Shown here: positions 26,547 to 46,131 of the stretch, in pieces
Position numbering within the stretch: the stretch's first letter is position 1
Layout: the number at the start of each line of letters is the position of its first letter
Virus record (IMG/VR): IMGVR_UViG_3300027909_000017
Direction: 5' to 3' (one strand)
DNA: 64,000 nucleotides
Source of the DNA: a virus
Notes under the pieces: generated by a model
Seen by the model: only the letters and a program-made list of their open reading frames with translations
Told to the model about the DNA's origin: nothing
Databases searched by the model: none
Translations under genes and position numbers: made by a program

Positions 26547-26758
26547 CCAAACCCTTCTACCCGAAACCCGTCGCGCCGGAGCACCAGTACCAGCCGACGC
26601 CGCGCTTGCGCTACCAGGGCGACGTGCACCCGATCACGGGCGAGCGCGTGTTCCGTCAGGACGCTGAAGGCTACAAGGCCGCGTACCGGACGATCTGGCG
26701 GCAGAACCCGAACCACCCCGCGCTCGCGAACAAGGAGCTGTGGCCCAATGCAATCTGA
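26543..26758 (+). CDS. hypothetical protein
   Basis: GTG coupled start. Confidence 0.5.
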   Translation: MTKPFYPKPVAPEHQYQPTPRLRYQGDVHPITGERVFRQDAEGYKAAYRTIWRQNPNHPALANKELWPNAI

Positions 26759-27443
26759 GACGAGGATCTCGTGCATCAGTTGCGGCGGCAGTGGGCGCAT
26801 CGTCTCCGCGATGAACGCTTTCAACCCGAGCGGCGTGGGGACCTGCGCCATGTGCGGCGGAGCGGGGACCGTCCCCGTCGTTCTGGTCGACGCCGGTAGT
26901 TTCGTAGACCCGCGGGACGCGGAGATCGCGCACCTGAAGAACCTGATCACGCAGCTCCAGGTCGACAACACGCGCCTGCTCGAGGAGCGGCGCAAGGTCG
27001 ACACGCACTACATGGTCGAGCACTTCCACCGCGTGTGCGACGTGCCGGTGCTGCACGAGCCGCAGGTGCCGGCGGACGAGCGCGTGCGGCTGCGCGCTGA
27101 CTTGGTCATGGAGGAGAGCTTCGAACTCGTCGAGGCTCTCTACGGCCCGAGCGTGGCGCTGTCCAAGATGCGCAACGCCGTGCAGGACTTCATCCGAGCA
27201 GCGCCCATCAACGCGCGCAACATCGTCGACTTCGCCGATGCATGCGCCGACGTGAAGTACGTGGTCGTCGGCGCCGAGCTCGAGTTCGGCATCGACGGTC
27301 GACCGGTTTTCTTGGGCGTGCACGAGGCGAACATGACGAAGGCGGGTGGCCCGGTGCGCGGGGATGGGAAGCGACTCAAGCCCGAGGGTTGGCAGGCGTT
27401 CGACGTTAGTAAAGAGCTCAGGAGGCAGGGATGGAGGAAGTGA
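26748..27443 (+). CDS. MazG/PRA-PH-like NTP pyrophosphohydrolase with N-terminal zinc finger
   Basis: VEHFH, LVMEESFELVEA, FADACADVKYV, VHEANMTK, DGKRLKP. Confidence 0.8.
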   Translation: MQSETRISCISCGGSGRIVSAMNAFNPSGVGTCAMCGGAGTVPVVLVDAGSFVDPRDAEIAHLKNLITQLQVDNTRLLEERRKVDTHYMVEHFHRVCDVPVLHEPQVPADERVRLRADLVMEESFELVEALYGPSVALSKMRNAVQDFIRAAPINARNIVDFADACADVKYVVVGAELEFGIDGRPVFLGVHEANMTKAGGPVRGDGKRLKPEGWQAFDVSKELRRQGWRK

Positions 27444-28150: not shown

Positions 28151-29097
28151 CCGAGACCAACGCGCGCATCCTGTGCGACTCCGTCTCGTCGGCGGGGCAC
28201 CGCCTTATCACGTTCGAGTGCACGTTCCCGCGCATCGTGCTCGCCGAGGTGAACACGCACCGCGACAAGTCACGGAACTCGGCGTCGAGCCGAGCCATCC
28301 CGGTCGAGAAGATGATCAAGCGGGTGCTCGAGGACCCGTACGTGCCAACTCACTGGGGCAAGAACCAGAAGGGTATGCAGGCTGACGAGGACGTGGATGC
28401 TGACGCCGCCGCGGACGCGACGGGTGTTTGGCTGGCGGCTCGCGACGTGATGGTCGAGCAGGCCAACGACCTGCTGAACATCGGCATCCACAAGCAGATC
28501 ACGAACCGCCTGCTCGAGGCGTTCATGTGGCACACGGCGTTGGTCACCGGCACGGAGTGGTCGAACTTCGAGAACCTGCGCGACAACAAGGACGCGCACC
28601 CGGACTTCCGGGACTGCGCGCACATGGTTCGTGAGCTCCGCGCGAAGAGCAATCCGAAGTTGCTCGGAGAAAACGACTGGCACGCACCTCTGCTTTACGA
28701 CGAGGACTTCGAGCAGGCGATCTTGGCCGACCCGACGCACCCGCTCTGCGTGCAAGACCGTCTCATCAAGATCTCCGTCGGTCGCTGCGCGCGCGTGAGC
28801 TACCTGACGCACGACGGAAAGCGCGACCACCAAGCCGACGTCGAACTCTGCGAGCGCTTGCTTGTAAACGGGCACATGTCCCCGTTCGAGCACGTGGCGC
28901 GGCCGATGACGGCGGGTGAACTCGAGCTATTCAAGTCTTTTAAATTCAGGTGGAACGGCGAGGGTTGGGCACATGTAGCAGGCCAGAACGGCGAGTACGA
29001 GTACACGCACTTCCTCGGCAACGTGCAGGGCTGGGTCCAGTACCGGAAGTTGATCCCGCACGAGGACGACATCCTGGGAGCTCGGCAATGCGCGTAG
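28147..29097 (+). CDS. thyX: FAD-dependent thymidylate synthase
   Basis: EVNTHRDKSRNSASSRAIP, RCARVSY, HMSPFEH. Confidence 0.9.
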   Translation: MTETNARILCDSVSSAGHRLITFECTFPRIVLAEVNTHRDKSRNSASSRAIPVEKMIKRVLEDPYVPTHWGKNQKGMQADEDVDADAAADATGVWLAARDVMVEQANDLLNIGIHKQITNRLLEAFMWHTALVTGTEWSNFENLRDNKDAHPDFRDCAHMVRELRAKSNPKLLGENDWHAPLLYDEDFEQAILADPTHPLCVQDRLIKISVGRCARVSYLTHDGKRDHQADVELCERLLVNGHMSPFEHVARPMTAGELELFKSFKFRWNGEGWAHVAGQNGEYEYTHFLGNVQGWVQYRKLIPHEDDILGARQCA

Positions 29098-29654
29098 CTA
29101 TCTACGGGGCGTCCGGTACCGGCAAGACGACGGTTGCTAAGATGATCAAGCAGGAGTTCGGTTTACCGTTCAACCCGGTAGGCAGCCGGACCGTCGCCAA
29201 GGAGATGGGTTTCGACAACCCCTACGACGTCGACGCCGCAGGCAAGCGCGCCGAGTTCCAGTGGAAGCTCGTCGAGAGCAAGGTGGCGTGGGAGCGCGCG
29301 CACGAGCAGTTCGTCACCGACCGGACCACGCTCGACAACCTCGCGTACACCATGTTGCACGACATCTACGCCGCGAGCGATGACATGTTCATCGCGGCGT
29401 GCCGAGCCGGCTTCGTCAGGTACACGCACCTGATCTTCTGCCCGACGAGCGTCTTCTGCTCGCTCGACGACCCGCACCGCGTGCAGAACATCAACTACCA
29501 GCGGCTCTACGAGGTCTTGCTCAAAGCGCTGATCCTGCACGCCGTGACCGAGGACAAGTTGATGACCGACATTCGCGTCGTCCACGCGGCGACAGTGGGC
29601 GAACGCAGCAATTGGGTACGCAACTTCAAGAACCTTCTCCAAGCCCATGGATGA
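29088..29654 (+). CDS. P-loop NMP kinase-like (AAA_28) protein
   Basis: IYGASGTGKTT, FVTDRTTLD. Confidence 0.75.
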   Translation: MRVAIYGASGTGKTTVAKMIKQEFGLPFNPVGSRTVAKEMGFDNPYDVDAAGKRAEFQWKLVESKVAWERAHEQFVTDRTTLDNLAYTMLHDIYAASDDMFIAACRAGFVRYTHLIFCPTSVFCSLDDPHRVQNINYQRLYEVLLKALILHAVTEDKLMTDIRVVHAATVGERSNWVRNFKNLLQAHG

Positions 29655-32889: not shown

Positions 32890-33786
32890 GTGCAACTCCA
32901 AGAGCTTGTCACCACGATCCGACCGCACCCGTGGGGCGAGGCCGGTGTCCGGAGCTCGCTGGATGAGGTTGCGCGCTACGTCTCGAAAGGCATCAGCAAC
33001 CCGTACGTCCGCACGTTCGCGATCGACAAACTAGCCGAGGCGCAGGCTCGCGGCATTAATGTCGACACGTCGCGCGGACGCGCCGAGGTGCTGCTCGAGG
33101 TGTTTCAGCGCGAGAAACTGTGGGTGCCGGACCCGGTCAATGCCGAGTACATGCCCGAGGCTCACCTCATCGCGTGCGACCCCAACAAGCCGCACGTGAC
33201 GCCCGAGGGCAAGACGCTCGTCTGCAAGAGGGGCGACGACTGCGACGGTAAGACGATCGGACTCGGCGCGTGCTTCGGCGCGGTCGGGTTGAACAGTGTG
33301 GTCGTCGGGCACGGTTACGACCCCGATGGTGGTCGCATCGAGCACGTGCTGACGATGGTCTGGCTCGGGAAGCGTTGGCACTACGCCGACCCGAGCTTGA
33401 AAGAACTGAAACTTGGCCAGTGCGTGCCGTTCACGCGCGAGCGCGTGCTGAGCGTGCCGAACGTGCAGGTGCTCTGCGACGCGAGCTCGTGCATGACCGG
33501 CCAGGAGACGCGCTTCAACCCCGACGACATGAACTTCGTCAACGAGGGGATATTCGTCGGCGTCGCCGGCGCGCCGAACTCGCTCGCGGGAGTGCGCTCG
33601 CCCATCGTCTGGGTGACGAACGAAAAGCCGATGGTGCAGTGGCTCGGTTCTATCGGCGAGACCGCGGCGCAAAACAACCAGACCGCGCAGCGCTTCACCA
33701 CACTGGAGAAGATCTTGCTCGCGGGAACTTTCATCAGCGCGACCACGCTCGCGCTCGAGCTCTACGACCGCACGAGGCAGCTATGA
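32890..33786 (+). CDS. transglutaminase-like cysteine protease with C-terminal TM
   Basis: Triad motifs GDDCDG, IEHVL, WHYADPS; tag IVWV..VQWLG before a hydrophobic C-terminus. Confidence 0.75.
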   Translation: MQLQELVTTIRPHPWGEAGVRSSLDEVARYVSKGISNPYVRTFAIDKLAEAQARGINVDTSRGRAEVLLEVFQREKLWVPDPVNAEYMPEAHLIACDPNKPHVTPEGKTLVCKRGDDCDGKTIGLGACFGAVGLNSVVVGHGYDPDGGRIEHVLTMVWLGKRWHYADPSLKELKLGQCVPFTRERVLSVPNVQVLCDASSCMTGQETRFNPDDMNFVNEGIFVGVAGAPNSLAGVRSPIVWVTNEKPMVQWLGSIGETAAQNNQTAQRFTTLEKILLAGTFISATTLALELYDRTRQL

Positions 33787-34724
33787 ATTGGGTAAATCCT
33801 ATCAAGATCCCGGCAGAATTGAAGCGTCTTGGTCTCGGTCAAGCAGCCGATCCGAATCTAGACGCTTGGGCACAGATGATCACCGCGCTTCGCGACAGCG
33901 TCCAACTTTCTTGGAACGCTGCGAAGGCTTCGTACCTGGGTCTGAAGAAGGTCCGCGAAGATCTCGGTCTGCCGTTCATCGCGGCGCCGAGCGGAGAAAC
34001 TGATGCGAATGTTGGAGCGTGGGGCGCCGACCTCGACCAACAAGCCGTCGACTTGCAGGCCATCAACACGATCCTGATCAACGCCGCTAACGACGTCCTC
34101 GAGAACAAGCGCAAACTCATCTGGGATCCGACTCTGAAAGAGTTTGTCATTGAGGCGTTGCCCGACGACGTCGTGCGCGTGGAGAACGTCGGCGGCAAAC
34201 CGACGCTGGTCCTGATCACGACCGGCGCCGCCACTCACAGCACCGGCACGATCGGTATCGCGCCGCTGGCGATCGGTGCTGGCGTCGCGGTCTTGGCCGT
34301 CGTCGCCGGCATCGGTCTCTACTCGTTGGTCAAGGACACGAACGCGACGATGCGCTCGCTCGCGGAGCAGAAGACGACGCAGACGCTCTCAAACAATCAA
34401 GTGAAGATGATCGAGAAGGGCGCTACGCCGGAGCAGGCGGCGCAAGCCACCAAAGCGGTCACCGACGGAGTCGCGTCGATTAAAGAAGCTGACGCGAAAC
34501 TCGAGCAAGCGAAGGCCGGAGGAAAAGACGTCGACGCTTGGACTAACTTGATCAAGACCGGCGGATTCATCGCGCTCGGTCTCGGCGTTCTCTACATCGT
34601 CGCGCAACTCGTACCGAAGGGCGGTGTGCGTAGCACAGCACCGGCGATGCCGATGCAAGAGAACCGTCGGCGTCGTCGGCGTCGGTCGAATCGGACCAGG
34701 ACTCGAGCCGCCTACGCGAGGTGA
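33783..34724 (+). CDS. tagged virion membrane protein (MNWV), two TMs, QEN-poly-Arg tail
   Basis: ATG 33783 coupled; TMs IAPLAIGAGVAVLAVVAGIGL and FIALGLGVLYIVAQLV. Confidence 0.75.
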   Translation: MNWVNPIKIPAELKRLGLGQAADPNLDAWAQMITALRDSVQLSWNAAKASYLGLKKVREDLGLPFIAAPSGETDANVGAWGADLDQQAVDLQAINTILINAANDVLENKRKLIWDPTLKEFVIEALPDDVVRVENVGGKPTLVLITTGAATHSTGTIGIAPLAIGAGVAVLAVVAGIGLYSLVKDTNATMRSLAEQKTTQTLSNNQVKMIEKGATPEQAAQATKAVTDGVASIKEADAKLEQAKAGGKDVDAWTNLIKTGGFIALGLGVLYIVAQLVPKGGVRSTAPAMPMQENRRRRRRRSNRTRTRAAYAR

Positions 34725-34730
34725 TGAGCC

Positions 34731-35276
34731 GTGGCACGTCCTCAGATCGCAAAAACCACCGTGTGCGACAGTCGCGAATGTCGCCGCGTAAACCTGCTCG
34801 TTCGTGGCACGCACATCGAGCTCGTTTCTGTCGAGCGAGTGCGCGAGGTCGGTTACCACAAACTCGACTACTATAAGATGCCGAGTGACGTGAAGTTTCC
34901 AGCGGAATATGTGCTGGTTCAGGACACTTCAGGCGAAGCGCTGCGACGCTGCGACTTCTACATCGTGCGCGCGAAGTCGAGTGGGTCGATCGTGGGCCAC
35001 GATACGAGTGACAAAGTTCTGCGTGATGCAGAAGAGTACTTTCGAAACGGACGACGCATGTCTTCGACGAATGTCGACATCCCAAACGGAGCGTGGCATC
35101 GTCTCGGGAAGGTACAGTTCATTCGGTATCGCCGCTGGGGACATGCGAAGGGTTTTTACGAGCACGAGTACTCACCGACCGTCGTCTTGCAACAGACGGC
35201 GAGCGGAGCGCGTGCGTGGCGACTCCCACTACCTGGTGGATGTCAAGTTGACAGTAGAGGTTTCGGTTGGCCATGA
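34731..35276 (+). CDS. hypothetical protein in the morphogenesis module
   Basis: ORF between membrane and core-like genes. Confidence 0.7.
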   Translation: MARPQIAKTTVCDSRECRRVNLLVRGTHIELVSVERVREVGYHKLDYYKMPSDVKFPAEYVLVQDTSGEALRRCDFYIVRAKSSGSIVGHDTSDKVLRDAEEYFRNGRRMSSTNVDIPNGAWHRLGKVQFIRYRRWGHAKGFYEHEYSPTVVLQQTASGARAWRLPLPGGCQVDSRGFGWP

Positions 35277-35277
35277 T
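35241..35277 (+). promoter_or_regulatory. promoter candidate for core/capsid genes
   Basis: Palindrome TGTCAA-G-TTGACA; TTGACA-N18-CATGAT. Confidence 0.45.
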
Positions 35278-37054
35278 GCCGCTGACCAAGTTGGCTGCGC
35301 GCGTGCAAGCGCGTTTGGATGAAGCGAATCTGGAGGAGAATCCGGTGGCACAAGCCGTCAAAGAGAATCGCCGTCGCAAGGGCAGCAAGAAACCGAGCGC
35401 TGCTCAGTTGCGTGCACGCGAGAAGTTCGCGCGCATGGCTCGGTCAGGAAAGTTCAAGCGCAAGCGTCGCAAGAAGGAACTCGCGCAGAATCGAAAGATG
35501 AGCAAACGGCGTAGCCGGCGCATGGAGGACAATCGCCGGAATCGCACCTACCAAGCAAACCGGGGACGCAAGTACGAGTCGAATCAGAGCGCCCCCGCGA
35601 AGTCACAACAGGAGAATGCATCCATGGCCGCCGAACTCGAAGAGAACGCAAGGAAGGGCAAGAAGAAGGGCAAGAAGCGCCGGAAGGGGCGTCGCAAGGG
35701 TCGTAAGACCAAGCGACGCGCCAAAGCCCGTTCTCGAAAAGGCGGACGTCGCAAGAGTCGTCGTGGCAAGCGCAGGGCCGTGCGTACGGTCAAGACCCAC
35801 GTCGTGTCTTTGCCGCGCAGCACCGTCGCCGTCACGGAGAAGAAGCGTCGTCGCCGCAAGAAGAAGGCCGGCAAGAAGAAGCGTCGTGGCGGAGGTCGTC
35901 GGAAACGCGCGCTGATGGAGAACCCGTCTGGATTCTTCAGCGGCCCGGGACCGATGGCTCTCTACGAGAACCAAGCCGGCCCGTTCACGATGGCCGGACT
36001 CCGCGCCTACGGCGTCGCCGCCGTCGGTGTCGGCCTCGGTTTGATCGTCGCCGACGTGACGGATCGCTTGATCGCGACCCGCACGCCGAAAGACGGTCGC
36101 AACCCGTGGTACGGCAAGGACGCGGCCGGAGCGATCCGGATGCGCCCCGATGCGTGGCGTCTCGGCGGACAGGCCGGTGGTGCGGTTGCCGGTATGGCGG
36201 TCGCCTACTGGGCGCGCGGTCGCGGCATCATCCCGTGGCTCGTCGGCGGCATCGCTGTCGGCTTCGGCGCGAACCTGGTCAAGCAACTCTGGGACTGGTA
36301 CCTCGCTCCGACTGTCATGAAGGTCGAGCTCGCGGACGCGGGCAAGCCCAGCATCGGCAATCGGCTCTACTCCCTGGAGCAGAATTACATCCAGGAGCAG
36401 GTCGCGAAACTCTTCGCGCAGCGTCCGTTCGTCGCGTCGCTCGCGCCGGGACAGAACGACCCGCCCCAGATCACGTCCCCGCTCGGCGGTGGCGGAACCG
36501 GCGCCGGTCCGATGTACCAGCTCTCGGGTCAGCCCGGAGTTGGTCGCCCCGGACAGAACGCGCGCTCGGTCATCCGCACCGGTCGCGTCGGCACGTGTCA
36601 GGAGTGCGGTTGCTCGGACGGTTGCTACAGCAACTGCCCGACGCTGTGCCCGGACTGCCCGGAGTACAACCAGAACACGATGTGCCGTCACCAGGTGCAA
36701 GCCGGCGACGACATCAACGCGTTCGCTTCGGCGGGTGGCGTGTCGGTCGAACAGATCCTCGCGCTCAACCCGAACACTCCGTGGACACCCGGCAGCGTCG
36801 TCTTCCTCCCTTACGGAGTTTGCTCCGCGATGGAGAAGGGCTCGTTCAACCCGGTGGTCGCTGAGCTCAATCCCGTCGCTCCTCCGAGCCCACTGCCCGT
36901 CCCGCTCACCGCGGAGACGATGGTGGAACCGCCGGGTGGTCCGGTCGCGCCTCCGGCTGCCTTCGCGGCTCCCGGCGTGTACGGCACACCCATGAACGGC
37001 GACGATCACATCAAGAAGGCGATGATCTTCTCGGGCGGTCTTCGCAGGGACTGA
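35267..37054 (+). CDS. Lys/Arg-rich membrane protein with Cys cluster and LysM domain (core-like)
   Basis: Basic N-third with repeated xEN motifs; central TMs; CQECGC...; HQVQAGDD...GVSVEQILALNP...PGSVVFLP at about 36686-36811. Confidence 0.75.
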   Translation: MAMMPLTKLAARVQARLDEANLEENPVAQAVKENRRRKGSKKPSAAQLRAREKFARMARSGKFKRKRRKKELAQNRKMSKRRSRRMEDNRRNRTYQANRGRKYESNQSAPAKSQQENASMAAELEENARKGKKKGKKRRKGRRKGRKTKRRAKARSRKGGRRKSRRGKRRAVRTVKTHVVSLPRSTVAVTEKKRRRRKKKAGKKKRRGGGRRKRALMENPSGFFSGPGPMALYENQAGPFTMAGLRAYGVAAVGVGLGLIVADVTDRLIATRTPKDGRNPWYGKDAAGAIRMRPDAWRLGGQAGGAVAGMAVAYWARGRGIIPWLVGGIAVGFGANLVKQLWDWYLAPTVMKVELADAGKPSIGNRLYSLEQNYIQEQVAKLFAQRPFVASLAPGQNDPPQITSPLGGGGTGAGPMYQLSGQPGVGRPGQNARSVIRTGRVGTCQECGCSDGCYSNCPTLCPDCPEYNQNTMCRHQVQAGDDINAFASAGGVSVEQILALNPNTPWTPGSVVFLPYGVCSAMEKGSFNPVVAELNPVAPPSPLPVPLTAETMVEPPGGPVAPPAAFAAPGVYGTPMNGDDHIKKAMIFSGGLRRD

Positions 37055-37140: not shown

Positions 37141-38355
37141 ATGGCCAATATCGACAATCGATCCGGTGCGTGGAAGAAGTGTGCCACCATCGGTGAAGCT
37201 GCTGCGGTGCCCTGGTCGGCGCTTACGGCAATCATCAGCGACCAGACGCAGATCAAACTTCCGATGACTCCCGAGGAGTTTCAGAAGTTCGAAGGCAACA
37301 TCAACTTCTTCGATGTCGATACCGAGGCCAATCCGTGCCCGGGACGGCAGATCACGGGAGCGTTTACCGGCGCTCGCGTCGAGACGCCGTTCCTCGCGCT
37401 CGGAGCCTTCTTGATCCTCATCGGCGAGGGCTACTCCAAGACGCTGCCCGGAGCGCTCATCTCGGAACCGGCTTCCGAGTCGAGTACCCCGTGCTTCGAC
37501 GGGTGCATTCCCGTTGGAGGTCTCGGTGCAGACGCAGCCGCGCGCAACGCGGCTCTGTACTGGGGTGGACCGACTCAGCTCTTCCTCGAATCGTTCAGCC
37601 AGGCGTACCGCTTCCAGGTGCGCATGGGTCGCCGCATCGTCGTGGTCGACGAGCTCGCCGACCACATCGGTGTGTGGCCCCGCGCGAAGGCGTTCTGCGG
37701 AGCGAGTGACTCACTCGCCCCGATGATGCCCGAGATTCAGGAAGTGAACTCGGTCCTCCACGACAAGGACTTCGACCGGCTCTTCATCCCGCAGAACGTC
37801 GTCGTGGGCGATGCGGGAACCGAGTGCATCGGCGCACCGACCGCTGGAGTGACCTACGGCCACTTCACGCAGTCGGGTATCGCGCACAAGGCGTACATGT
37901 TCCAGCGGCCGCTGCTCTACGTTCCGACGACCACCATCCGGATTGGTCTGACGCGCGTGGAACAAGACTGCTGCTTCCTCGACTCGATGCGGCGCCAAGC
38001 GGTGCTCGATCTCGGCGTCGTGCCGACGCCCGCACCTGGCATCCTCAGCGAGACCTTGGACTGCGGCGCCGGCTACTCGTCGGCGTACACCATCCCGGGT
38101 GGCTGCCTCACCTACGGCGTCGGACTCTTCGGCGTCGAGCTCTTCCCGAGCGCGTGCATCGATTACCTGAACTACATCCTCCCCGAGAGCTTGCAGTTTC
38201 AGATGCTGCTCGAGAACAGCTTCATGCAGGGTCTGCTCCAGGCCAACTCCCTCAAGGGCGCCGGCCAACAGATGCTCAACGGCCTCACGCCGCAGGGCAA
38301 GCAGAACCTCAAGGCGCTGCTCGAGCGCAAGCCGATGGCGATCCTGGACGAGTAA
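37141..38355 (+). CDS. putative major capsid protein, single jelly-roll type
   Basis: AGGAG RBS with flanking hairpins; strand pattern NFFD..PFLALG..YRFQVRMG..DE..IG..RPLLYVP..IRIGL..VGLFG like P23-77/SH1-type MCPs (by eye). Confidence 0.55.
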   Translation: MANIDNRSGAWKKCATIGEAAAVPWSALTAIISDQTQIKLPMTPEEFQKFEGNINFFDVDTEANPCPGRQITGAFTGARVETPFLALGAFLILIGEGYSKTLPGALISEPASESSTPCFDGCIPVGGLGADAAARNAALYWGGPTQLFLESFSQAYRFQVRMGRRIVVVDELADHIGVWPRAKAFCGASDSLAPMMPEIQEVNSVLHDKDFDRLFIPQNVVVGDAGTECIGAPTAGVTYGHFTQSGIAHKAYMFQRPLLYVPTTTIRIGLTRVEQDCCFLDSMRRQAVLDLGVVPTPAPGILSETLDCGAGYSSAYTIPGGCLTYGVGLFGVELFPSACIDYLNYILPESLQFQMLLENSFMQGLLQANSLKGAGQQMLNGLTPQGKQNLKALLERKPMAILDE

Positions 38356-38393
38356 TCGTCCAAGCGCTCGCGTCACACACTAGCAAAAAAGGC

Positions 38394-38421
38394 GCGGGCG
38401 CTCGGTCACTCGGGCGCCCGC
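38394..38421. terminator. GC-rich hairpin after the putative MCP gene
   Basis: GCGGGCGC/GCGCCCGC stem; A6 tract at 38385-38390. Confidence 0.55.
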
Positions 38422-38455
38422 TCCAGTATTCTATTCCGGAAAAAGTGGTGAACCG

Positions 38456-39124
38456 ATGATTGGAGGAAAAAGGGTCAGGGAACTCGGTGTCGGGGACATC
38501 CCGCTCATCGCCCAGTACGACCCGCGCCTCGCGGTTGCGCTGGCATACGGCGGAGCGTTCGCGCCGAAAGGCGTGATCCTCAACGGCATCGCGTCCGCCG
38601 TCGGTGGTTGGGAGATCTTGACGCTCCGAGCAACGTTTCAGAGCGGCACGGCCAACCAGACCATCCCGGTCACGCTGCCGGACGTGGCTGAGGTCGACAT
38701 GTGGGTGCGCGACATCCGCGCGACCGTGCGTCGACCGAACTACTTCCCCGGCAACCCGCTGCGCGATATCGCGAACACCGCGTACGCGCAAAACCCGGAC
38801 ATCGACTTCACGCTCGAGGTGAAGACGTGGTGCAACTTCGCCATCAGTCTCGACCCCGTGCCGCTCGGCTTGATCGCCGAAACGTTCGAGTGTGTTTGCC
38901 CGGTCGGCCTCGTGCTCACGTGCGGTGCGTCGATCATCGGCAGCTTCACGAACACGCGCGCGCTCGTCGACCCGGACGAGATCCCGACCGAGGTCACCGT
39001 CGCGTTGCACGTCACTCGTCTGCCGCGCACGAACTGCTACGCGCAGATCGACATCGCCACAGCACTCAGCGTGCTCAAAGAACAGAAGATCCTGCCCGAC
39101 ATCGATCCTGGTTGCTGCGGGTGA
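38456..39124 (+). CDS. putative second single jelly-roll capsid protein
   Basis: DMWVRDI..DFTLEV..SLDPVPLGLI..LVLTCGASIIGSFTN..EVTVALHVTRL. Confidence 0.55.
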   Translation: MIGGKRVRELGVGDIPLIAQYDPRLAVALAYGGAFAPKGVILNGIASAVGGWEILTLRATFQSGTANQTIPVTLPDVAEVDMWVRDIRATVRRPNYFPGNPLRDIANTAYAQNPDIDFTLEVKTWCNFAISLDPVPLGLIAETFECVCPVGLVLTCGASIIGSFTNTRALVDPDEIPTEVTVALHVTRLPRTNCYAQIDIATALSVLKEQKILPDIDPGCCG

Positions 39125-39135
39125 GGTGGTGATGG

Positions 39136-40086
39136 ATGGCGCAGAGTCGAGCAGATGCGAGGAAGCACGAGTCGGAGATCACGGTAGCGGCTGAGCTACT
39201 ATCCGAGACGCCCGAGCTCGCCCACCTCTCTCGAGACTACTGCGGTTGGCGCTCGCGCTGTCCCGTCGTCGTCGACATCGTCAGTTCCGCGTTCGACATC
39301 GACAACATCGGTCTCGGCAGCTCGCCGTACACCGGCGACATGAGCCGCACCGGCATCGCGGTACCTCTCGCGCCGACGGTCAACCAGCAGCACCGTTACC
39401 TGTTTCGTCTCGCGACCATGGAGGTGCCGAGCGGGGCGGCGGCGGTCATCCTCGGAGTCCACACCGCGCAGACGCTGCGCACCGTGCTCGAGGGGACCGA
39501 CGGTGAAGGCTCGAGCTGTTTTCGACCGCTCGAGATCTTGGTGCGCGAGCCGTTCTGGCAACCGCCGAACGGCAACATCTCGTGGCACTTGAGGCAGTGG
39601 CAGTTGCGCGAGCACCGTCGCTTGCTGACCGCCGGCCCGGCAGCGGCCGGCTTCGACATCCACGTGGACGGCAATGACACCGCGCTCATGTTCGCCGAAA
39701 CCGTGTCGTTCGCGCCGTACACCCCGCCGTTCTCCGGCATGCCTCCAGGGCGCGCGATCGGTGCACTCGGCACGTGGCGCGACAATCGCGACTGGGAGGT
39801 GCACATCCCCATCTTCGGTCCGAAGAAGATCGGCCTCTGGGCGTCAGTGCACCAGTTCGACTCGTTGCTCATCTGCCCGACAACCGCACCGACCGACCTC
39901 GGCGCCATCTCGCAAGAGGACCGCTTCCTGTACGCGTTCGGTTCGACCGGGACCGGCGTCCAATACGGTCGGGTGGCTGGCGCCATCACCGTGGAGCTCT
40001 GGCCGAATTGCAACGACCTGAGAGACCACCTGCGCGCCGGGGGTAAGCTTTTCCAACCGAGTTCAACAAGGAGATTGCAGCCGTGA
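39136..40086 (+). CDS. putative jelly-roll minor capsid/penton protein
   Basis: Beta-rich, no TM, third gene of the capsid-like trio. Confidence 0.4.
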   Translation: MAQSRADARKHESEITVAAELLSETPELAHLSRDYCGWRSRCPVVVDIVSSAFDIDNIGLGSSPYTGDMSRTGIAVPLAPTVNQQHRYLFRLATMEVPSGAAAVILGVHTAQTLRTVLEGTDGEGSSCFRPLEILVREPFWQPPNGNISWHLRQWQLREHRRLLTAGPAAAGFDIHVDGNDTALMFAETVSFAPYTPPFSGMPPGRAIGALGTWRDNRDWEVHIPIFGPKKIGLWASVHQFDSLLICPTTAPTDLGAISQEDRFLYAFGSTGTGVQYGRVAGAITVELWPNCNDLRDHLRAGGKLFQPSSTRRLQP

Positions 40087-41153
40087 GCAAAGTCAATTGG
40101 ACGGGACGCATCAGTCCGGACAACCGCCGCGGCTCTGTGGGAGCTCCCCCGCCCGTGTTCTGGTGGTACTTCAAGGTCTACGCGAAGTACGGAGGCGAGG
40201 TCGTGCACTCGGAGGGCCCGAGCGGCATGACCGGAGCTCAGGGCAACGCGCGCATCTTGATGCTCGGTCAGCAGTACGGGACCGAGTACGTGGTGTGCGG
40301 CACGTACCTCGGCGGCTACGGCGGCAAGAGCACGTACTGCACTTACGACGGTGGCGTCACGACCAAGTACGGTGAGCCGCCGGCTTTCCCGCCGGTGCCG
40401 ACGTCGCCTCCGGTGCCGATCATCCCGCTCTTCTTCAACACGCCTCGCGTCCCGTATCGACCGTTTTTCGGTCCCGCTACCCTCAATCCATTCACGCCGA
40501 TCTTTCCCGGCTACCGCACCCGCGTCTCGTGGGTCGCGCCGTCGCCGCGTCCGTTCTTCGTGTTCGGAGCGCGCAGGGTCGAGTGGCTCGGCAGCCGCCT
40601 CGGTCAGAACGCTTGCAACGACCTGAACAACGCGGTCGCGAGCGCGAAGGCTTCGAGGAACGGGTTGCAGCAGAACTTGAGCGCGGTGAACAACGCGTAC
40701 AACCAAGCGGTGCAAGCCGGTAATCAAGAGGCCATCGCGGATCTCTACGCGACCAAGCTCGGAATCCAGGCCGACCTCGCGAAGCTCGACGCCGACATCG
40801 TCGCGCTCGAGGCTCAGGCGAAGGCCGCGTGCGCGCCGCCCCCGCCGTCGACCGGCTGCACGTCGGACGCTGACTGCGGTCCTGCTGGCTTCAAGTGCGT
40901 CGACGGGAACTGCGTTCCGTGGGACTGCTTCAAGGACTCGGACTGCGGAGCCGGTCTGAAGTGCGACGGCAAGGGCAAGTGCATCCCCGCGACCACGACC
41001 GCGAGCGTCGGCGGTGGTGGGATCTGGCTGCTCGCCGCCGCGGCGGCTGCCGCGATCTTCTTCGCGATTAAACCACCGAAGCTCCCGAAGACTGCCGCCG
41101 GTCGGTTGCAAGAGAACCGTCGGCGTCGACGTCGACAGGCGGCCGCCGCTTGA
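40083..41153 (+). CDS. doubly tagged membrane protein with Cys-rich repeats and QEN-poly-Arg tail
   Basis: KVNWT at N-terminus, RVSWV..RRVEWLG internally, coiled coil, two CxxDxDC repeats, TM. Confidence 0.8.
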   Translation: MSKVNWTGRISPDNRRGSVGAPPPVFWWYFKVYAKYGGEVVHSEGPSGMTGAQGNARILMLGQQYGTEYVVCGTYLGGYGGKSTYCTYDGGVTTKYGEPPAFPPVPTSPPVPIIPLFFNTPRVPYRPFFGPATLNPFTPIFPGYRTRVSWVAPSPRPFFVFGARRVEWLGSRLGQNACNDLNNAVASAKASRNGLQQNLSAVNNAYNQAVQAGNQEAIADLYATKLGIQADLAKLDADIVALEAQAKAACAPPPPSTGCTSDADCGPAGFKCVDGNCVPWDCFKDSDCGAGLKCDGKGKCIPATTTASVGGGGIWLLAAAAAAAIFFAIKPPKLPKTAAGRLQENRRRRRRQAAAA

Positions 41154-41168: not shown

Positions 41169-41546
41169 GTGCGGGTCACTTGGGTCAAAACAAACCGGCG
41201 AGTCGAATGGCTCGGTAAGATTCCGAGCGGGCGCGTCGGTCTGACCGACCAGGAGCGCGTCAACGAGGCGCGGTCGTACTTCCCTGGGTGCTACTCGAAG
41301 GCATTCGATGATTGCATCGATAAAGGCTTGGTGACCGCCTACCCGAATTGTGCGCGAATCCTCGAGCTCTGGGGCAACGACAAGACGGCACCCGTCTCAC
41401 TCCAACTCGACGCCGTGATCGATCAGATGCCGTATTGTTCCGCGCCGAGCACGGCAACGTCGTCGAGCGACAACACGGTGATCTGGGTCGTCGGCGCGGT
41501 GGCGCTCGCCGCCGTCGCTGGTTACGCGCTCGCGGGAGGTTTCTGA
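41169..41546 (+). CDS. tagged tail-anchored Cys-containing protein
   Basis: MRVTWVKTNRRVEWLG...C-terminal TM. Confidence 0.8.
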   Translation: MRVTWVKTNRRVEWLGKIPSGRVGLTDQERVNEARSYFPGCYSKAFDDCIDKGLVTAYPNCARILELWGNDKTAPVSLQLDAVIDQMPYCSAPSTATSSSDNTVIWVVGAVALAAVAGYALAGGF

Positions 41547-41758
41547 TGAGGGTCAACTGGGTCGGAACCAGTCGCGAACTCGAGTTTCACCGCGCGCAGC
41601 GAACGATGCTCAGCGGACCACGTCGTCTCGGTGTCAGTGCCGGCGGCGTCTCGGTCGCGACATCCGGCATCATCGCGCCGCTCGTCGTGGTCGGCATCTT
41701 GGCGCTCGCCATCTACGGCGGCGTGAAGGCGATCGGGAAACTACCAGAGGGGCGTTGA
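41546..41758 (+). CDS. tagged small membrane protein
   Basis: MRVNWVGTSRELEF; ATG overlaps TGA; TM. Confidence 0.75.
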   Translation: MRVNWVGTSRELEFHRAQRTMLSGPRRLGVSAGGVSVATSGIIAPLVVVGILALAIYGGVKAIGKLPEGR

Positions 41759-41761
41759 TGC

Positions 41762-42034
41762 ATGCGCGTCGACTGGGTGCAGAGTCGACGCCGCGTGGAG
41801 TGGCTGGGCGCGCTCCCGTCAGGCGAGAGTGCGGAAGCTCTCGTCGGCGGCGACTTAACAGCGTTGCCCGTCGTGACGTTTCATACCGGCTTGCGTGCTG
41901 GACTCATCGGTCTCGGTCTGTACGTGGCAGGTTTTCGAGGCGAACAACTCGTGAAGGGTGCGATCGCCGGTGCGGTCGGCATCGAGGCGTTCGTGCTAGC
42001 GTGGGCTCTATACGAACGAGGTAAGAAAAAATGA
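41762..42034 (+). CDS. tagged small two-TM protein
   Basis: MRVDWVQSRRRVEWLG. Confidence 0.8.
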   Translation: MRVDWVQSRRRVEWLGALPSGESAEALVGGDLTALPVVTFHTGLRAGLIGLGLYVAGFRGEQLVKGAIAGAVGIEAFVLAWALYERGKKK

Positions 42035-42783
42035 ACGCCGTCAATTGGGTAAACGCACGAGGACAAACTTCGGCGGTTGGTCCGAAAGGTCGCAAGGCGC
42101 GTCGCGTGCAGTGGCTAGGTGCGCCCGCGTTCGGCGTCGGCGCGCTCGACGTCGCCTCGAACGGGTTCGCGAAGGGGCTGCTCGCGTCGTGGAACGCGAC
42201 TGACGGCGCGAACTGGATCAATCAGTACGGCTTGCAGCCGGGTGACGTCGACCCGAACGCCTGGTACGACCGAGACGGCTACGTCCTCGCCGGCTTCGTC
42301 AAGTGGTGGAACGGCACGAACGCGCAGAAGCTTCCCGAGCCGGGGACGAAGAACGGCGTCGCTTGGGTCGACCTGACGCAGCAGCACTTGACCACGCTCC
42401 AGAATTGGGCGCTGTCGAAGGGTATCATCAACCCGGGTCAGCTCCCGGCTTCGCCGCAGCCGACTCCTGTGCCGATGGACATGTCGACGTGCCTGGCCAA
42501 TTGCCAGAACACGTACGGGCTCGATCCGATCTCGCTCGCGACGTGCGCCGCTGCGTGCGCTCAGTCGTTCCCTCTCACTCCTCCACCGGTGCCGATCTCA
42601 CCGACACCGACGACGCCGGCGCCGACTACCCCGCCCTCCACTCCTCCGCCTACCATCCCGACGGCGCCCGTCACGCCGGGCACCACGACGACCAGCGAGA
42701 GCAAGACGAACGTCTGGCCCTGGGTGATCGGTGGCACTGCTTTGGTGGCACTCGGTGCGTTGGTTCTTTCTGGAGGGAAGTGA
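42031..42783 (+). CDS. tagged tail-anchored protein with Pro/Thr linker
   Basis: AVNWV...RRVQWLG; paralogous domain in next gene. Confidence 0.8.
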   Translation: MNAVNWVNARGQTSAVGPKGRKARRVQWLGAPAFGVGALDVASNGFAKGLLASWNATDGANWINQYGLQPGDVDPNAWYDRDGYVLAGFVKWWNGTNAQKLPEPGTKNGVAWVDLTQQHLTTLQNWALSKGIINPGQLPASPQPTPVPMDMSTCLANCQNTYGLDPISLATCAAACAQSFPLTPPPVPISPTPTTPAPTTPPSTPPPTIPTAPVTPGTTTTSESKTNVWPWVIGGTALVALGALVLSGGK

Positions 42784-42786
42784 GCC

Positions 42787-43926
42787 ATGCGCGTCGAATG
42801 GGTACAGAGGCGTCGAGTCCAGTGGGTGCGTGAGACACGCGCTCAGCTCGGTGTTGGTCTGATCGGCATTCTTGAATGGGAAGACCCCGTCGAGAAGAAC
42901 CCGTCCGGCGCGCAGCTTCACGCCAAGAACATTCTCTGGCTGTGGGGAAAGGCGAATCCGACGTACAGCCCGATCGCCGGCTACGGGACTGCGGCCGACC
43001 TCACGAGCAATTGGATGGATCGCGATCGTCAGATGATGTCCGCGTTCTGCAACTGGTGGAACATCACGCACCCGAGCCAGGCGATCCCCATCTCGCAAAA
43101 CGTCACGAACGCGAACATCAAGGCGCTCGACCAGTGGGTCAAGGAAGAGAACGCCAAAGCGTCGCAGGCTCAACCGATCACACCCGGGCAATTCCCTCCG
43201 GGTAGTGGACAGCCGCAACCGCAGCTCACTTTTCCTCTGCTCACTCTCACGCCGCTCGGCTGGCCTCCCGGCGTGCCGTACCCACCGCCGAAACCTTCCT
43301 GGTGGCCCGACGGGCTCAATTACCCACCGGTCGGCGACTCGTGGGCGCCCGTTCCTCCTGGTTGGTGGAATCTCTCGCCGAACCCGCTGCCGTGGCCGCC
43401 GCCGAAACCTGACGGCTGGCCCACGTTCCCGTACCCGCTCCCGCCCACGGCGCTCGCGTCGGTCATGTCGTGCGATCAGGTGTGCGACGCTCAGTTCGGA
43501 ACCAAGGGCACGACTCCGAACCAGACCGCGCTCGACGTCTGCAAGAAGGGTTGCTCGACGGCTGCGACTCCGCCTCCGCTGACGTTCCCGATCGGTCCGC
43601 AGAATCTTCGCCCGCTCCCACCCGACACGGGGACGGCTCCGAGCACGGGGACGACGTCCACGCCGAAGTCGAGCGTCGTGCCGATCGTGCTCGGTCTTGC
43701 AGCGCTCGGCGGCGTCGCGTGGTTGTTGATGCGCGGCAGCGGCACGACCTTGCTCGAGAACCCGCAGTTCAGCTTTCTCGGCTGGACGTTCGGTGCCCAC
43801 AAAACGGGCAGGGGCAAGGTCAAACCGCCGAAGATGAAGCTCACGAAGAAGGGTAAGAAGGAATTCGCCGCGGAATGGAAGCGCGTGTTTCCCACACTAC
43901 CCGTCCCGGATATTGACGAGCCATGA
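42787..43926 (+). CDS. tagged protein with Pro/Trp repeats, TM and LEN-basic tail
   Basis: MRVEWVQRRRVQWV; LLENPQ after TM. Confidence 0.8.
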   Translation: MRVEWVQRRRVQWVRETRAQLGVGLIGILEWEDPVEKNPSGAQLHAKNILWLWGKANPTYSPIAGYGTAADLTSNWMDRDRQMMSAFCNWWNITHPSQAIPISQNVTNANIKALDQWVKEENAKASQAQPITPGQFPPGSGQPQPQLTFPLLTLTPLGWPPGVPYPPPKPSWWPDGLNYPPVGDSWAPVPPGWWNLSPNPLPWPPPKPDGWPTFPYPLPPTALASVMSCDQVCDAQFGTKGTTPNQTALDVCKKGCSTAATPPPLTFPIGPQNLRPLPPDTGTAPSTGTTSTPKSSVVPIVLGLAALGGVAWLLMRGSGTTLLENPQFSFLGWTFGAHKTGRGKVKPPKMKLTKKGKKEFAAEWKRVFPTLPVPDIDEP

Positions 43927-44387
43927 AAGTTGATTGGGTCCGTCCGATGCAGAATGCCTCGCGCTTCGGCGCGCTGGGGCAAGCTGCGACTCCACCGGCG
44001 CCGCCGGGGTGGACGGGTCCGTGGCCGCCTCCGAAACCCCCGTTCTGGGACCTCACCGGGCTGCCCTGGCTGCCCACGGCCCTCCCTGCGCAGCGACCGC
44101 CCTTGTACCCGCCCACGCTGCCCTGGCCGCCTCCGCCGCCCCCGTACTGGCCCGCGGGGTGGGACTGGCCGCCGCAGCCGCCGGCGAGCTGGACGACTCC
44201 GCCTCCGGTGCCTGCCTCGACCCCCGTAACACCCCCCTCCGGCGGCGCGGGGCCGGCACCGACTTCTTCTGTCTCGAGCTCGGGCGGCGACAGCGTCGCT
44301 TACGTGATCGGTGGCGTGCTGGTCCTCGGACTGTTCGCACTTGTCGCGCTCGGCGGCATGGCGTCGCAGGAGGAAGATGCGGCGTGA
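43923..44387 (+). CDS. tagged Pro/Trp-rich tail-anchored protein
   Basis: MKVDWV...GALGQ; WPPPKP repeats; TM. Confidence 0.8.
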   Translation: MKVDWVRPMQNASRFGALGQAATPPAPPGWTGPWPPPKPPFWDLTGLPWLPTALPAQRPPLYPPTLPWPPPPPPYWPAGWDWPPQPPASWTTPPPVPASTPVTPPSGGAGPAPTSSVSSSGGDSVAYVIGGVLVLGLFALVALGGMASQEEDAA

Positions 44388-45097
44388 CTCACCCGCTGGA
44401 CCTCTTCATGCCCGTCGGCGCCGTCGCGATGCCGAGCGCTTGGTTCGATTCCGGATGCGGTGGACCGCGTGCGCGGTGGACCGCTGAAGGTCTGATCGAG
44501 GTCGAGGGCGAGGGTGCGAAGTCGCGTGCACTGCCCGCGGACGTGAAGAAGTGGCGTGACCTGATCATTACCAAGTCGACCAAGTACGGCGTGCCGGCAC
44601 AGTTCACGACCGGCATCATGGGTCTCGAGAGCAGCGGAGATCAGAACGCGAAGTCGCCCGCGAACGCGTGTGGGCTGATGCAGCTCATCCCGTCGACCGC
44701 GTCTGACCAAGCCGGCCGCCCCGTCACGTGCGCGGAGCTCTTGAGCGACGCCGACCTCAACGTTGATCTCGGCACGAAGTTCTTGGCCGAGCTCCTGACG
44801 AAGTACGGCAACAACCCGATCAAGGTCGCGGCCGCCTACAACGCCGGCTCGGCGAAGTGTGGGATGAGCAGCAAGTGCACCTCACCGAATCGATGGAACT
44901 TGCTCACCGACTGCGGTCAGAGCGGCGCGTCCGCTGATTATCCCGGTATCGTGTTCGGCTACACGAACGCGGCCGCAGCGTGGCTCGGCGCCAATCCAAC
45001 GGTGAGCCCGTCTTCGTCAGGACCGAGTCTCGGCGCGCTCGTGCTCGGTACCGCGGCCGCAGGCGGTCTGCTCTGGGCATGGGGAGCATTTAAATGA
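44384..45097 (+). CDS. tail-anchored lytic transglycosylase (SLT family)
   Basis: IMGLESSG, ACGLMQLIPSTA, NVDLGTKFL, AAYNAG; C-terminal TM; GTG coupled. Confidence 0.85.
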   Translation: MTHPLDLFMPVGAVAMPSAWFDSGCGGPRARWTAEGLIEVEGEGAKSRALPADVKKWRDLIITKSTKYGVPAQFTTGIMGLESSGDQNAKSPANACGLMQLIPSTASDQAGRPVTCAELLSDADLNVDLGTKFLAELLTKYGNNPIKVAAAYNAGSAKCGMSSKCTSPNRWNLLTDCGQSGASADYPGIVFGYTNAAAAWLGANPTVSPSSSGPSLGALVLGTAAAGGLLWAWGAFK

Positions 45098-46131
45098 ACC
45101 GCGTCAATTGGTGCGTTCCTATCCGGCGTCTCGAGTTTCTCGGCGCGTACACGGGCTACGACAAGATCAAGGACAACGCGCTCGCCAAGGAGATCATCGG
45201 GCGACGCGGCGCTGTCGACGAGGAGTCGCTCAAGGCGTACGGCAAAGTCGGCGGCACGATCGCGGGTGCGGGACTCTGCGCGGCGACTGGCGTAGGCGCA
45301 ACGGTTGCGGTCGGGTGCGGCATCATCGGCGGCATCATCGGCGAGTGGATCGCGAGCAAGATCCCCGTCGCGCACGGTTCGACGATGGAAGACCTCGTCG
45401 GCGACACGATCAACAACTTCATCAAGCCGAAGGCGAAGCTCTCCGCCAACGGCATGTACGCGGTGCGTGCCTACCTCACGATGCGCGACCTCGCGATCAC
45501 GAAGGGCCTCGCGACTGACGCTTCGTTGACCGCGGCCGGTATTCCTCCGGCACCGGTTGACCCGCGCTGGGCGCCGAACGCGCAGCGGTACTCGCGAGCG
45601 AAGAGCAACTACTCGGACGTGCTCGTCCAGCTCGCGCAGTCATCTGCGTGGCAGAAAGAGTGCAAGGCCGCGAAGAACATCAAGGCCGTGAATTCCAAGT
45701 TCTCGTGCCAGGACTACCTCTATGCCGTCTACTACGAGGGATACATCGGCCCGGTCGCGGCGCCGGGCGAACCGATCGACTGGTACGCGGTCGGGCGCGA
45801 CGAGATCGCGTTCTATTGGAAGGTGCTCAAGTACAAGAAGGACTGCGAGGCGTGGATTCGCGGGCCTCAGTTCATCGGCACGAAGCTCGACCCGAACTTG
45901 ACGTGCCCGATGAATGCGCCGAGTACGCTGGCGAAGATCTACCTCGACAAGCTGAACGCGACGGTGAAGTGGCCCGCTAAGGGCAGCCCGCTACTGCCCG
46001 ACGTCCTCGACATCTCTCAACACATCTTTGGTTCGTCCGGTACCACCAGTACTCCGTCGAAGACAAGTCCGGTGCTCGTGGTCGGAGGACTCGCCGCCGC
46101 TGCTGCGGCGGTGTGGTACTTCTTCCTGTGA
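45094..46131 (+). CDS. tagged membrane protein with glycine-zipper segment
   Basis: RVNWC..RRLEFLG; GGTIAGAGLCAATGVG..GIIGGIIG; C-terminal TM. Confidence 0.8.
   Translation: MNRVNWCVPIRRLEFLGAYTGYDKIKDNALAKEIIGRRGAVDEESLKAYGKVGGTIAGAGLCAATGVGATVAVGCGIIGGIIGEWIASKIPVAHGSTMEDLVGDTINNFIKPKAKLSANGMYAVRAYLTMRDLAITKGLATDASLTAAGIPPAPVDPRWAPNAQRYSRAKSNYSDVLVQLAQSSAWQKECKAAKNIKAVNSKFSCQDYLYAVYYEGYIGPVAAPGEPIDWYAVGRDEIAFYWKVLKYKKDCEAWIRGPQFIGTKLDPNLTCPMNAPSTLAKIYLDKLNATVKWPAKGSPLLPDVLDISQHIFGSSGTTSTPSKTSPVLVVGGLAAAAAAVWYFFL

Follow-up and report, generated by a model that had tools for sequence, protein, structure and literature searches.

Few isolates of bacteriophages with an internal membrane have been cultured. 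In PRD1 the membrane is exposed at entry and the wall-acting parts of the particle work there. Membrane proteins of PRD1 (P7/P14, P11, P18, P32) and SSIP-1 (gp41, gp44) are encoded among structural genes, beside virion wall-degrading enzymes. A gene in a comparable position was analysed here in a 64,000-nucleotide stretch of viral DNA (the window; IMG/VR record IMGVR_UViG_3300027909_000017). This gene, at 35267..37054 on the plus strand and referred to as ORF 35267, encodes a very basic N-terminal part with a repeated asparagine (Asn, N) motif, a membrane core, a cysteine (Cys) cluster and a LysM domain. Its product has no detectable sequence similarity to the PRD1 and SSIP-1 membrane proteins, and we know of no PRD1 or SSIP-1 virion membrane protein with a long basic domain or a LysM. 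Neither condensation or DNA-binding proteins nor proteolytic maturation are mentioned in a review of phages that contain a membrane (PMC6356626). We tentatively favour, with somewhat less than even confidence, the reading that the product of ORF 35267 is a core membrane protein of a virus particle. The virus, uncultured and apparently tailless, would infect bacteria, possess an internal membrane and be a distant relative of SSIP-1. The basic front of the protein would neutralise the genome, its LysM would lie on the face of the wall enzymes and its Asn motifs would be maturation sites.

Basic core precursors are described for adenovirus, in which the histone-like pVII and pre-mu (pX) are cut at (M/I/L)XGG↓X by the cysteine protease AVP, which is packaged alongside them (PMC4246237). 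Likenesses to the present locus are very basic virion proteins and a double-stranded DNA virus with a jelly-roll capsid (both putative here), and a hydrophobic residue at the third position ahead of the key one. However, there is no relation in sequence or fold, the adenovirus proteins are soluble and lack a membrane anchor or LysM, the site is Gly-Gly rather than Φ-x-E-N-(P) (Φ, hydrophobic residue), the candidate enzyme here has a transglutaminase (TGase) fold instead of the adenain fold, and cleavage is predicted in our case. The internal proteins IPI-III of phage T4 are basic, are packed with the DNA and lose an N-terminal capsid targeting sequence to gp21 (PMC9026906, PMC9958956). The leader of ORF 35267 resembles this sequence in being short, conserved and terminated by a putative protease site (LEEN-P). 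In contrast to the present virus, T4 is tailed and has no membrane, its internal proteins are small and soluble, and the invariant residue in the site type of the prohead protease gp21 (Leu/Ile-x-Glu) is Glu, not Asn. Nor did the window show a prohead protease of the S77 type.

LysM proteins such as E. coli MltD, B. subtilis LytE and fungal Ecp6 share with ORF 35267 the β-α-α-β fold and the pattern G-D-(D/T)-L..(I/L)-A ... L-N ... G-x-x-(L/V)-x-(I/L)-P, and the domain is bracketed by Cys, as it is in Ecp6 and in the LysM receptors of plants. ORF 35267 differs in having just one LysM copy, placed at the end of a membrane protein with several spans and a protamine-like front; we know of no described LysM protein in this context. 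The lamin B receptor and similar tethers of chromatin to the inner nuclear membrane combine a basic nucleic-acid-binding N-terminus with a multi-span anchor. This likeness is one of analogy alone; the receptor is eukaryotic, unrelated in sequence and carries neither a glycan-binding domain nor a repeated motif.

ORF 35267 comprises 595 codons without interruption, counted from TTG 35267, and its third-position GC content (0.78) is similar to that of the adjacent genes. Translation probably starts at ATG 35273 rather than at the TTG, because a product of 593 amino acids (aa) called in a public protein collection (P0001) fits this start and because the ATG overlaps the stop codon of the upstream gene (CC-ATGA-TG, with AGAGG a few bases before). 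Residue numbers below refer to the 595-codon frame. The features of the gene are as follows.

35267..37054 (+), whole ORF of 595 codons; likely start ATG 35273
35267..35341 (+), leader-like conserved N-terminal helix (T-K-x-A-x-R-V-Q-x-R-L/I ...) ending at the first site, LEEN-P; from the alignment and homolog ORFs
35342..35971 (+), Lys/Arg-rich region, residues 26-235 (85 K/R, 13 D/E), divided by nine further Φ-x-(E/Q/D/A/S)-N sites
Residues 22, 31, 72, 86, 95, 103, 114, 124, 216 and 232, starts of the motif sites LEEN, VKEN, LAQN, MEDN, YQAN, YESN, QQEN, LEEN, LMEN and LYEN
35912..35971 (+), juxtamembrane site pair LMEN-PSGFFSGPGPMA-LYEN, the last Asn at a family-wide fixed distance before the core anchor
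35990..36316 (+), membrane core with helix 1 (242-270), loop (271-295), helix 2 (296-315) and helix 3 (322-350); from the AlphaFold2 model and invariant columns
36317..36577 (+), post-membrane conserved helix (N-R-x-Y-x-x-E-Q-x-x-x-Q), then a Gly/Pro-rich low-confidence linker; from the family alignment and AlphaFold2
36578..36685 (+), Cys cluster T-G-R-x-G-x-C-x-x-C ... G-C-x-x-x-C-x-x-x-C-x-x-C ... C
36680..36823 (+), LysM domain flanked by conserved C473 and C519; from profile and fold
36824..37051 (+), Pro-rich tail with a conserved end; from the C-termini of homologs

The original prediction, made from the sequence alone, had described a very basic N-terminal third punctuated by EN sites, and both observations hold. 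Residues 1-235 contain 88 Lys/Arg and 17 Asp/Glu (net charge ~+71), with the largest basic block at residues 128-219 (+49). With 37% K+R over 241 aa, the N-terminal part belongs by composition to the protamine-like or H1-tail-like class, defined as long low-complexity regions with at least 30% Lys+Arg and few acidic residues. The label histone-like stands for the composition and falls for descent: no homology of the basic front to any histone, HU or p6 family was found, and the N-terminal part matched no Pfam or PHROG family. A relationship to phi29 p6 was rejected, one of 13 homologs having matched at chance level (E 0.049).

The Asn residues of this region are far from randomly placed. Ten of the 12 within residues 1-235 sit in Φ-x-(E/Q/D/A/S)-N. 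In the N-terminal part, [LMVIYF]-x-[EQDAS]-N, a stricter form of this pattern, was found nine times where 0.51 would be expected, nine being reached in none of 20000 shuffles, and the dipeptide E-N six times against 0.74 expected (again 0/20000 shuffles). All ten sites are conserved in position in the five closest homologs (including P0002-P0005), whereas the sequence between them drifts. Distant homologs display tandem units, A-N-A-N-P-R6 or A-A-A-N-P-R-R-K-R-R, and tandem N-P-R6 occurs at the loci L007 and L010. Among 676 Asn in the N-terminal parts of 89 representatives, position -3 is enriched in L/Y/F (3.7-6.6x background), position -1 in E/D (5.5-5.8x) and position +1 in Pro, which follows 53% of them (8.7x). 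Φ-x-x-N-P lies inside the first 70 aa in 35 of 75 full-length family representatives. The distance of the site before the membrane is nearly fixed: in 92 of 93 representatives an Asn lies 19-31 aa ahead of the helix-1 sequence D-R-x-x-A-T-R, mostly at exactly 31 or 26 aa and usually in the context G-L-F-E-N-P-x-G-P or Y-x-K-x-N-P. Many sites are followed by non-basic residues, as in LEEN-PVAQAV, LMEN-PSGFF and LYEN-QAGPF.

By analogy with adenovirus pVII and pre-mu, the motif most likely marks processing sites. This is suggested because the motif is short and linear, has a single invariant residue and is kept in place in a fast-drifting low-complexity region, because it stands at module borders (after the leader, between basic blocks, before helix 1, and between anchors and basic tails), and because non-basic contexts also carry it. 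If the chain were cut behind every Asn, the products would be a 25-aa leader, several peptides of 8-41 aa, the 92-aa block with charge +49, a neutral spacer of 16 aa and a membrane protein of 360 aa from Q236. To speak of a polyprotein, as the original prediction did, is thus reasonable, in that the repeated motif behaves like processing sites, with cleavage itself predicted.

Two known self-separating elements were considered and rejected. The core V-E-E-N-P-G-P of 2A 'StopGo' peptides (D-[V/I]-E-x-N-P-G-P) resembles the motif, but no site has N-P-G-P; they read L-E-E-N-P-V and L-M-E-N-P-S in ORF 35267 and E-N-P-G-L or E-N-P-M-G-P in homologs. To our knowledge, 2A peptides do not work on bacterial ribosomes. 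Autocleavage of the FlhB/EscU type (N↓PTH) would suit the frequent N-P, but T-H never follows and the region is of low complexity.

The same motif could instead serve structure or the binding of DNA. The Asn-Pro would then form an Asx-Pro turn that starts each Arg/Lys run, as modelled on SPKK/SPXX, the minor-groove motifs of sperm histones, and the uncleaved single chain would join genome, membrane and outer face of the virion. The Pro that follows about half of the Asn, poor for most proteases, is ideal for such a turn or a helix N-cap, and the tandem N-P-R6 units as well as the poly-Arg tails directly after the motif in neighbouring proteins point the same way. A turn does not account for the hydrophobic residue at -3 and the acidic residue at -1, many sites lack following basic residues (including those in the tail of a capsid-like protein, see below), and the fixed-distance site before helix 1 is kept in members with little basic sequence nearby. 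We regard an uncleaved tether as unlikely.

The membrane core was examined by Kyte-Doolittle hydropathy and in an AlphaFold2 model built from a 14-sequence alignment. Hydropathy revealed strong peaks at 247-265 and 320-338 and a weaker, Gly/Ala-rich peak at ~296-315; AlphaFold2 predicted three long helices (242-270, 296-315, 322-350; pLDDT 80-91) and a short amphipathic helix in the loop between helices 1 and 2. Of the three hydrophobic segments predicted originally, the outer two are thus clear and the middle one is weaker and less certain. Helix 1 ends in the invariant A-D-x-x-D-R-x-x-A-T-R-x-P, and the loop 271-295 is conserved (P-W-Y-G-x-D-A-A ... R-P-D-A-W-R-L). A fold search of the core with VIA-align yielded just generic transmembrane helix bundles (Z up to 9.6), below the level of kinship for helical proteins. 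With three helices as modelled, the basic front and the LysM would lie on opposite faces of the membrane.

The Cys cluster described earlier is present as CxxCxCxxxCxxxCxxxCxxC, with Cys at 444, 447, 449, 453, 457, 461 and 464; C473 and C519 flank the LysM. C449 is not conserved in the family, whereas the other eight Cys are invariant or nearly so. In distant relatives the cluster is Gly/Cys-rich and resembles metallothionein.

ORF 35267 carries a LysM domain, as originally called; it is weak from the single sequence and secure for the family by profile and fold. Compared alone with the Pfam LysM model (PF01476), the protein scores 13.6 bits (E 0.068), below the threshold of 20.9, and ten of 13 homologs match weakly (best E 0.0054). 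The family profile, in contrast, finds solved LysM proteins with E 1.9e-8 (Ecp6), 4.2e-7 (LytE) and 2e-6 (T. thermophilus NlpC/P60 LysM), ranging to 4e-3; in a library of 1.84 billion proteins it also matches many multi-LysM proteins with 7-13 stretches. In the AlphaFold2 model the domain consists of β 472-476, α 483-490, α 494-500 and β 511-515 (model numbering E258-262, H269-276, H280-286, E297-301) with pLDDT 70-86. The top Foldseek matches of residues 472-515 are all LysM (1e0g, TM 0.67, root mean square deviation (rmsd) 1.9 Å; 5k2l, TM 0.74; 5ylg, rmsd 1.5 Å), with probabilities of 0.95-0.99 but E-values of 0.2-0.9, the domain being small. The β-α-α-β unit superposes on LysM structures of MltD, chitinase and NlpC/P60 with 1.5-2.3 Å over ~45 residues. 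As a LysM, the domain would bind glycans that contain GlcNAc (peptidoglycan or chitin). The Pro-rich tail closes with a conserved short hydrophobic strand and a charged end (..K-K-A-M-I-F-S-G-G-L-R-R-D).

A word-indexed search detected 13 relatives with 38-78% identity, all from metagenomes, and a metagenome scan revealed 19 loci with the gene, several on contigs of 84-120 kb. The comparison of gene order rests on this one scan, and the locus L010 was left out of part of the family analyses. A profile search without the basic part returned 5559 matches at E up to 1e-3, many of them ordinary LysM proteins, and 71 reached 1e-30. The membrane-core signature was present in ~100 of the best 150 profile matches, and the best matches form ~100 clusters at 50% identity. 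In 78 core-bearing representatives with an N-terminal part of at least 100 aa, this part has a median length of 236 aa and 32% Lys+Arg. By a crude pattern, LysM was found in 38 core-bearing matches, mostly of the closer clade, while Cys-rich segments are general. Retained across the wider family are the basic front, the membrane core and, at a constant spacing ahead of helix 1, an Asn(-Pro), with LysM specific to a clade. Distant members without LysM carry a basic front (sometimes H1-like and rich in K/A/P, as in P0093), N-P before helix 1, the core and the Gly/Cys cluster. Three distant members (P0081, P0108, P0149) have a DUF6582 at or near the N-terminus before the basic region (E 3e-7 to 1e-3); no other known domain family was found in distant members.

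ORF 35267 had no match in the PHROGs, and a scan of GTDB genomes revealed no relative, and hence no clue to a prophage or host. Scores from the ESM Atlas stayed below 0.8, at the level of noise. The family apparently stems from environmental metagenomes, groundwater being indicated for some members. A literature search retrieved no description of this virus group and no phage protein with this combination of parts. Without annotation, and absent from the cultured-phage and genome collections searched, the family marks an unrecognised virus group.

The gene order around ORF 35267 is fixed and comprises the coiled-coil gene g31231, a TGase-fold gene, the membrane protein gene g33783, g34731, ORF 35267 and three capsid-like genes (37141-40086). 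It is identical in every related metagenome locus with enough flank. Two of the upstream genes are of particular concern here.

34731..35276 (+), g34731, upstream partner gene, 181 aa, β-rich; directly before ORF 35267 in all loci, overlapping its start (ATGA)
32890..33786 (+), TGase-fold Cys-His-Asp enzyme with a C-terminal anchor; homolog of SSIP-1 gp34, with C..H..D read from the sequence

The g34731 product has conserved C12, C17, D65, C74, H145 and C171 and was modelled by AlphaFold2 with pLDDT 83. Fold searches gave no recognisable fold: the Foldseek matches, among them 3C proteases at rmsd 17 Å, had a TM of ~0.1, and the highest Z from VIA was 4.5. Its role towards ORF 35267 may be that of an enzyme, a chaperone or another partner. 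The TGase-fold gene lies two genes upstream and co-occurs with ORF 35267 wherever enough upstream sequence is present. It is a candidate for the enzyme that acts on the Asn motif.

Related motifs are present in other proteins of this module. The products of g33783 (33783-34724, +) and g40083 (40083-41153, +) have a C-terminal transmembrane segment, then a motif (MQEN-R7 and LQEN-R6, respectively) and then a poly-Arg tail. The tails of their homologs read L-E-N-R-K-R-R, L-L-D-N-P.. and L-Q-Q-N-P-K-R-R-R, and a motif after the membrane segment also occurs in g42787 and g46715. The first capsid-like protein (37141-38355, +) displays, within its C-terminal 50 residues, an extension with LLEN-S and LQAN-S, and its homologs have G-N-P and x-x-N-P in the same extension, which may be removable. 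Homologous loci keep the motifs of the neighbouring genes in part. Counted over the virion module outside ORF 35267, Φ-x-[EDQAS]-N-[PR] occurs seven times against 2.3 expected, a modest enrichment reached in 22 of 2000 shuffles; no enrichment was found in the early genes of the window.

Downstream of ORF 35267, tail-anchored neighbours carry the wall-degrading domains SLT and M15. A run of tail-anchored proteins at 41169-47566 (+) has common N-terminal tags, R-V-x-W-V and R-R-V-E-W-L-G. A reading of the latter as a Tat signal was dropped, most of the proteins lacking the following hydrophobic h-region. By eye, the C-terminus of ORF 35267 (K-K-A-M-I-F-S-G-G; R-R-S-L-E-F-S-G-A at the locus L003) resembles the R-R-V-E-W-L-G half of these tags.

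The window as a whole is virus-like, with 62-69% GC, a family A DNA polymerase, ThyX, a PD-(D/E)XK nuclease and an SF2 helicase. From 31 kb to 52 kb, hardly any gene has a Pfam or PHROG match. It also encodes a GroES/Cpn10 homolog with an N-terminal extension of ~75 aa (12313-12819, +; Pfam E 2.2e-26) and, adjoining ThyX, a MazG/PRA-PH-type pyrophosphohydrolase (26748-27440, +; E 3.8e-11). No packaging ATPase was seen in the 64 kb inspected of the ~92-kb genome. The one compact P-loop ORF in the vicinity of the module, just before the structural block (29085-29651, +), was rejected for this role, as it belongs to AAA_28, a kinase-type family (E 7.7e-13), and is not of the FtsK/HerA type.

The combination of basic front, membrane core and LysM would also suit a protein of the host cytoplasmic membrane that holds viral DNA at this membrane by its cytoplasmic front and reaches the wall with a disulfide-bonded Cys part and LysM in the periplasm, at a site of assembly or replication or in lysis. 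For three spans, the positive-inside rule predicts precisely this topology; LysM normally acts outside the cytoplasm, and eight conserved Cys beside it suit an oxidising compartment, the best solved match being the disulfide-rich Ecp6. Nevertheless we consider a host-membrane role improbable, given that in all loci the gene is fixed between a structural-protein homolog and the capsid-like trio, far from the downstream lysis-type genes, that its motif and tag-like C-terminal end are common to other proteins of the module, and that distant members without LysM retain the remaining parts. A holin or other lysis protein in the narrow sense (small, ~70-150 aa, in a lysis cassette) was rejected; ORF 35267 has 595 aa, no PHROG match and a place inside a conserved structural block.

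The link to SSIP-1 is provided by the TGase-fold gene, whose hidden Markov model (HMM) matches gp34 with E 1.8e-6 (tblastn E 2e-6); in the SSIP-1 record (JN880423), the annotation of gp34 is that of a structural protein. None of the HMMs built for g31231, g33783, g34731, g40083 and the capsid-like trio had a match in SSIP-1; the TGase-fold gene alone was matched. By position, gp44 is the SSIP-1 counterpart of ORF 35267, a structural protein encoded directly before the structural genes gp45-47. Motifs like those of ORF 35267, R-E-N-P and H-E-N-P, are found in gp41 and gp44 (25740-26612 and 33840-34565 of SSIP-1, locus L020): gp41 has M-R-E-N-P at its extreme N-terminus and V-R-E-N-P-Q-G ~14 aa before a C-terminal transmembrane segment, and gp44 has V-H-E-N-P-S-G and A-Q-N-P.

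In the particle reading that we favour, the basic front and the poly-Arg tails of the tail-anchored neighbours would share that face of the viral membrane which is turned to the genome. There the front would neutralise and compact the ~90-kb DNA against the membrane, an argument from composition alone. At a net charge of +71 per chain, a few hundred copies could balance a considerable part of the ~184,000 phosphates in a 92-kb genome. The Cys/LysM part would be on the opposite face, with the N-terminal transglycosylase and peptidase (SLT/M15) domains of the neighbours. When the membrane is exposed at entry, LysM would hold this face on the peptidoglycan, so that wall-binding and wall-cutting parts act together. 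Cuts at Φ-x-(E/D)-N-(P) during maturation would remove the leader, release short protamine-like peptides and finally free the membrane core from the basic part; the TGase-fold Cys-His-Asp enzyme would be the most obvious candidate to act on the Asn. The membrane-spanning link from DNA to the wall that had been proposed originally is partly supported by the conserved basic part, anchor and LysM, whereas the juxtamembrane cuts, if made, would break it.

Several points weigh against this reading. We infer cleavage, DNA binding, virion location, topology and glycan binding alike, the virion location from gene position and from the kinship of a neighbouring gene with one for a structural protein of SSIP-1. 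The hydrophobicity of the middle helix is weak, and two spans would put both ends of the protein on one side. About half of the motif Asn are followed by Pro, which would disfavour a cut after Asn by most proteases; a cut before Asn, autocatalysis or chemistry of the Asn side chain could be alternatives. The catalytic domain of the candidate enzyme would face the side opposite to the basic tails of the tail-anchored proteins. According to the positive-inside rule, basic segments stay cytoplasmic, and assembly of the PRD1 type leaves this side of the membrane facing the capsid instead of the DNA; together these would turn the basic front to the capsid. Either the membrane is acquired otherwise, then, or the basic parts do not face the genome. 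The family HMM gave no homolog of ORF 35267 in a six-frame translation of SSIP-1 (best E 0.012, 9 bits), tblastn against 50,697 phage records gave no match, and a scan of IMG/VR returned pattern matches alone and no relative.

The presence of a TGase-fold enzyme leads to another view of the motif, in which the Asn is a target of side-chain chemistry (deamidation, or an isopeptide bond to Lys) or of Asn-Pro self-cleavage, giving a cross-linked or self-processed nucleoprotein layer. Enzymes of this fold (transglutaminases, PNGase) act on Gln/Asn side-chain amides, Lys-Asn isopeptides formed with a helper Glu stabilise the HK97 capsid shell, and Asn-Pro self-cleavage occurs in FlhB/EscU (NPTH) and reovirus mu1 (N42-P43). 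Asn is indeed the one invariant residue of the motif, with Pro often next and Glu usually before it. On the other hand, many members are almost without Lys in the basic part (6 K vs 77 R at L017), the T-H of NPTH is absent, and the known self-cleavages need a folded context where the region here is of low complexity, which makes this view quite improbable. Very unlikely is a role of the basic front as membrane-shell glue or scaffold that binds anionic lipid head groups or the acidic inner capsid surface rather than DNA: a PRD1-type membrane origin would indeed put cytoplasmic basic parts on the capsid side, but a charge of ~+71 per chain and an H1-/protamine-like composition across ~80 divergent representatives are far above the need for lipid anchoring and typical of nucleic-acid condensers.

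Our favoured reading of a processed particle protein can be extended to the assembly of the virus, in a form that we hold to be doubtful and rather improbable. The ~90-kb genome would be compacted and enclosed without a packaging motor: a membrane-anchored precursor of protamine peptides would draw DNA to the nascent membrane, a particle-borne TGase-fold enzyme would cut at Φ-x-E-N-(P), and a LysM membrane protein would be left for docking on the peptidoglycan at entry. If true, the core maturation of adenovirus would have its counterpart among prokaryotic viruses.

What is new in ORF 35267 is that known kinds of protein, a putative core-condensing precursor and a putative LysM wall anchor, are fused into a single membrane protein, in a group of viruses not yet described. 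Maturation of the core by a cysteine enzyme of the virus has so far been a feature of eukaryotic jelly-roll viruses (adenovirus) and also of African swine fever virus and poxviruses, and the protein would bear on whether it extends to bacterial viruses. It would likewise bear on how ~90 kb of DNA can be neutralised and organised in the lipid vesicle of a large tailless virus, and on what fastens the membrane of such a virus to the cell wall at entry.

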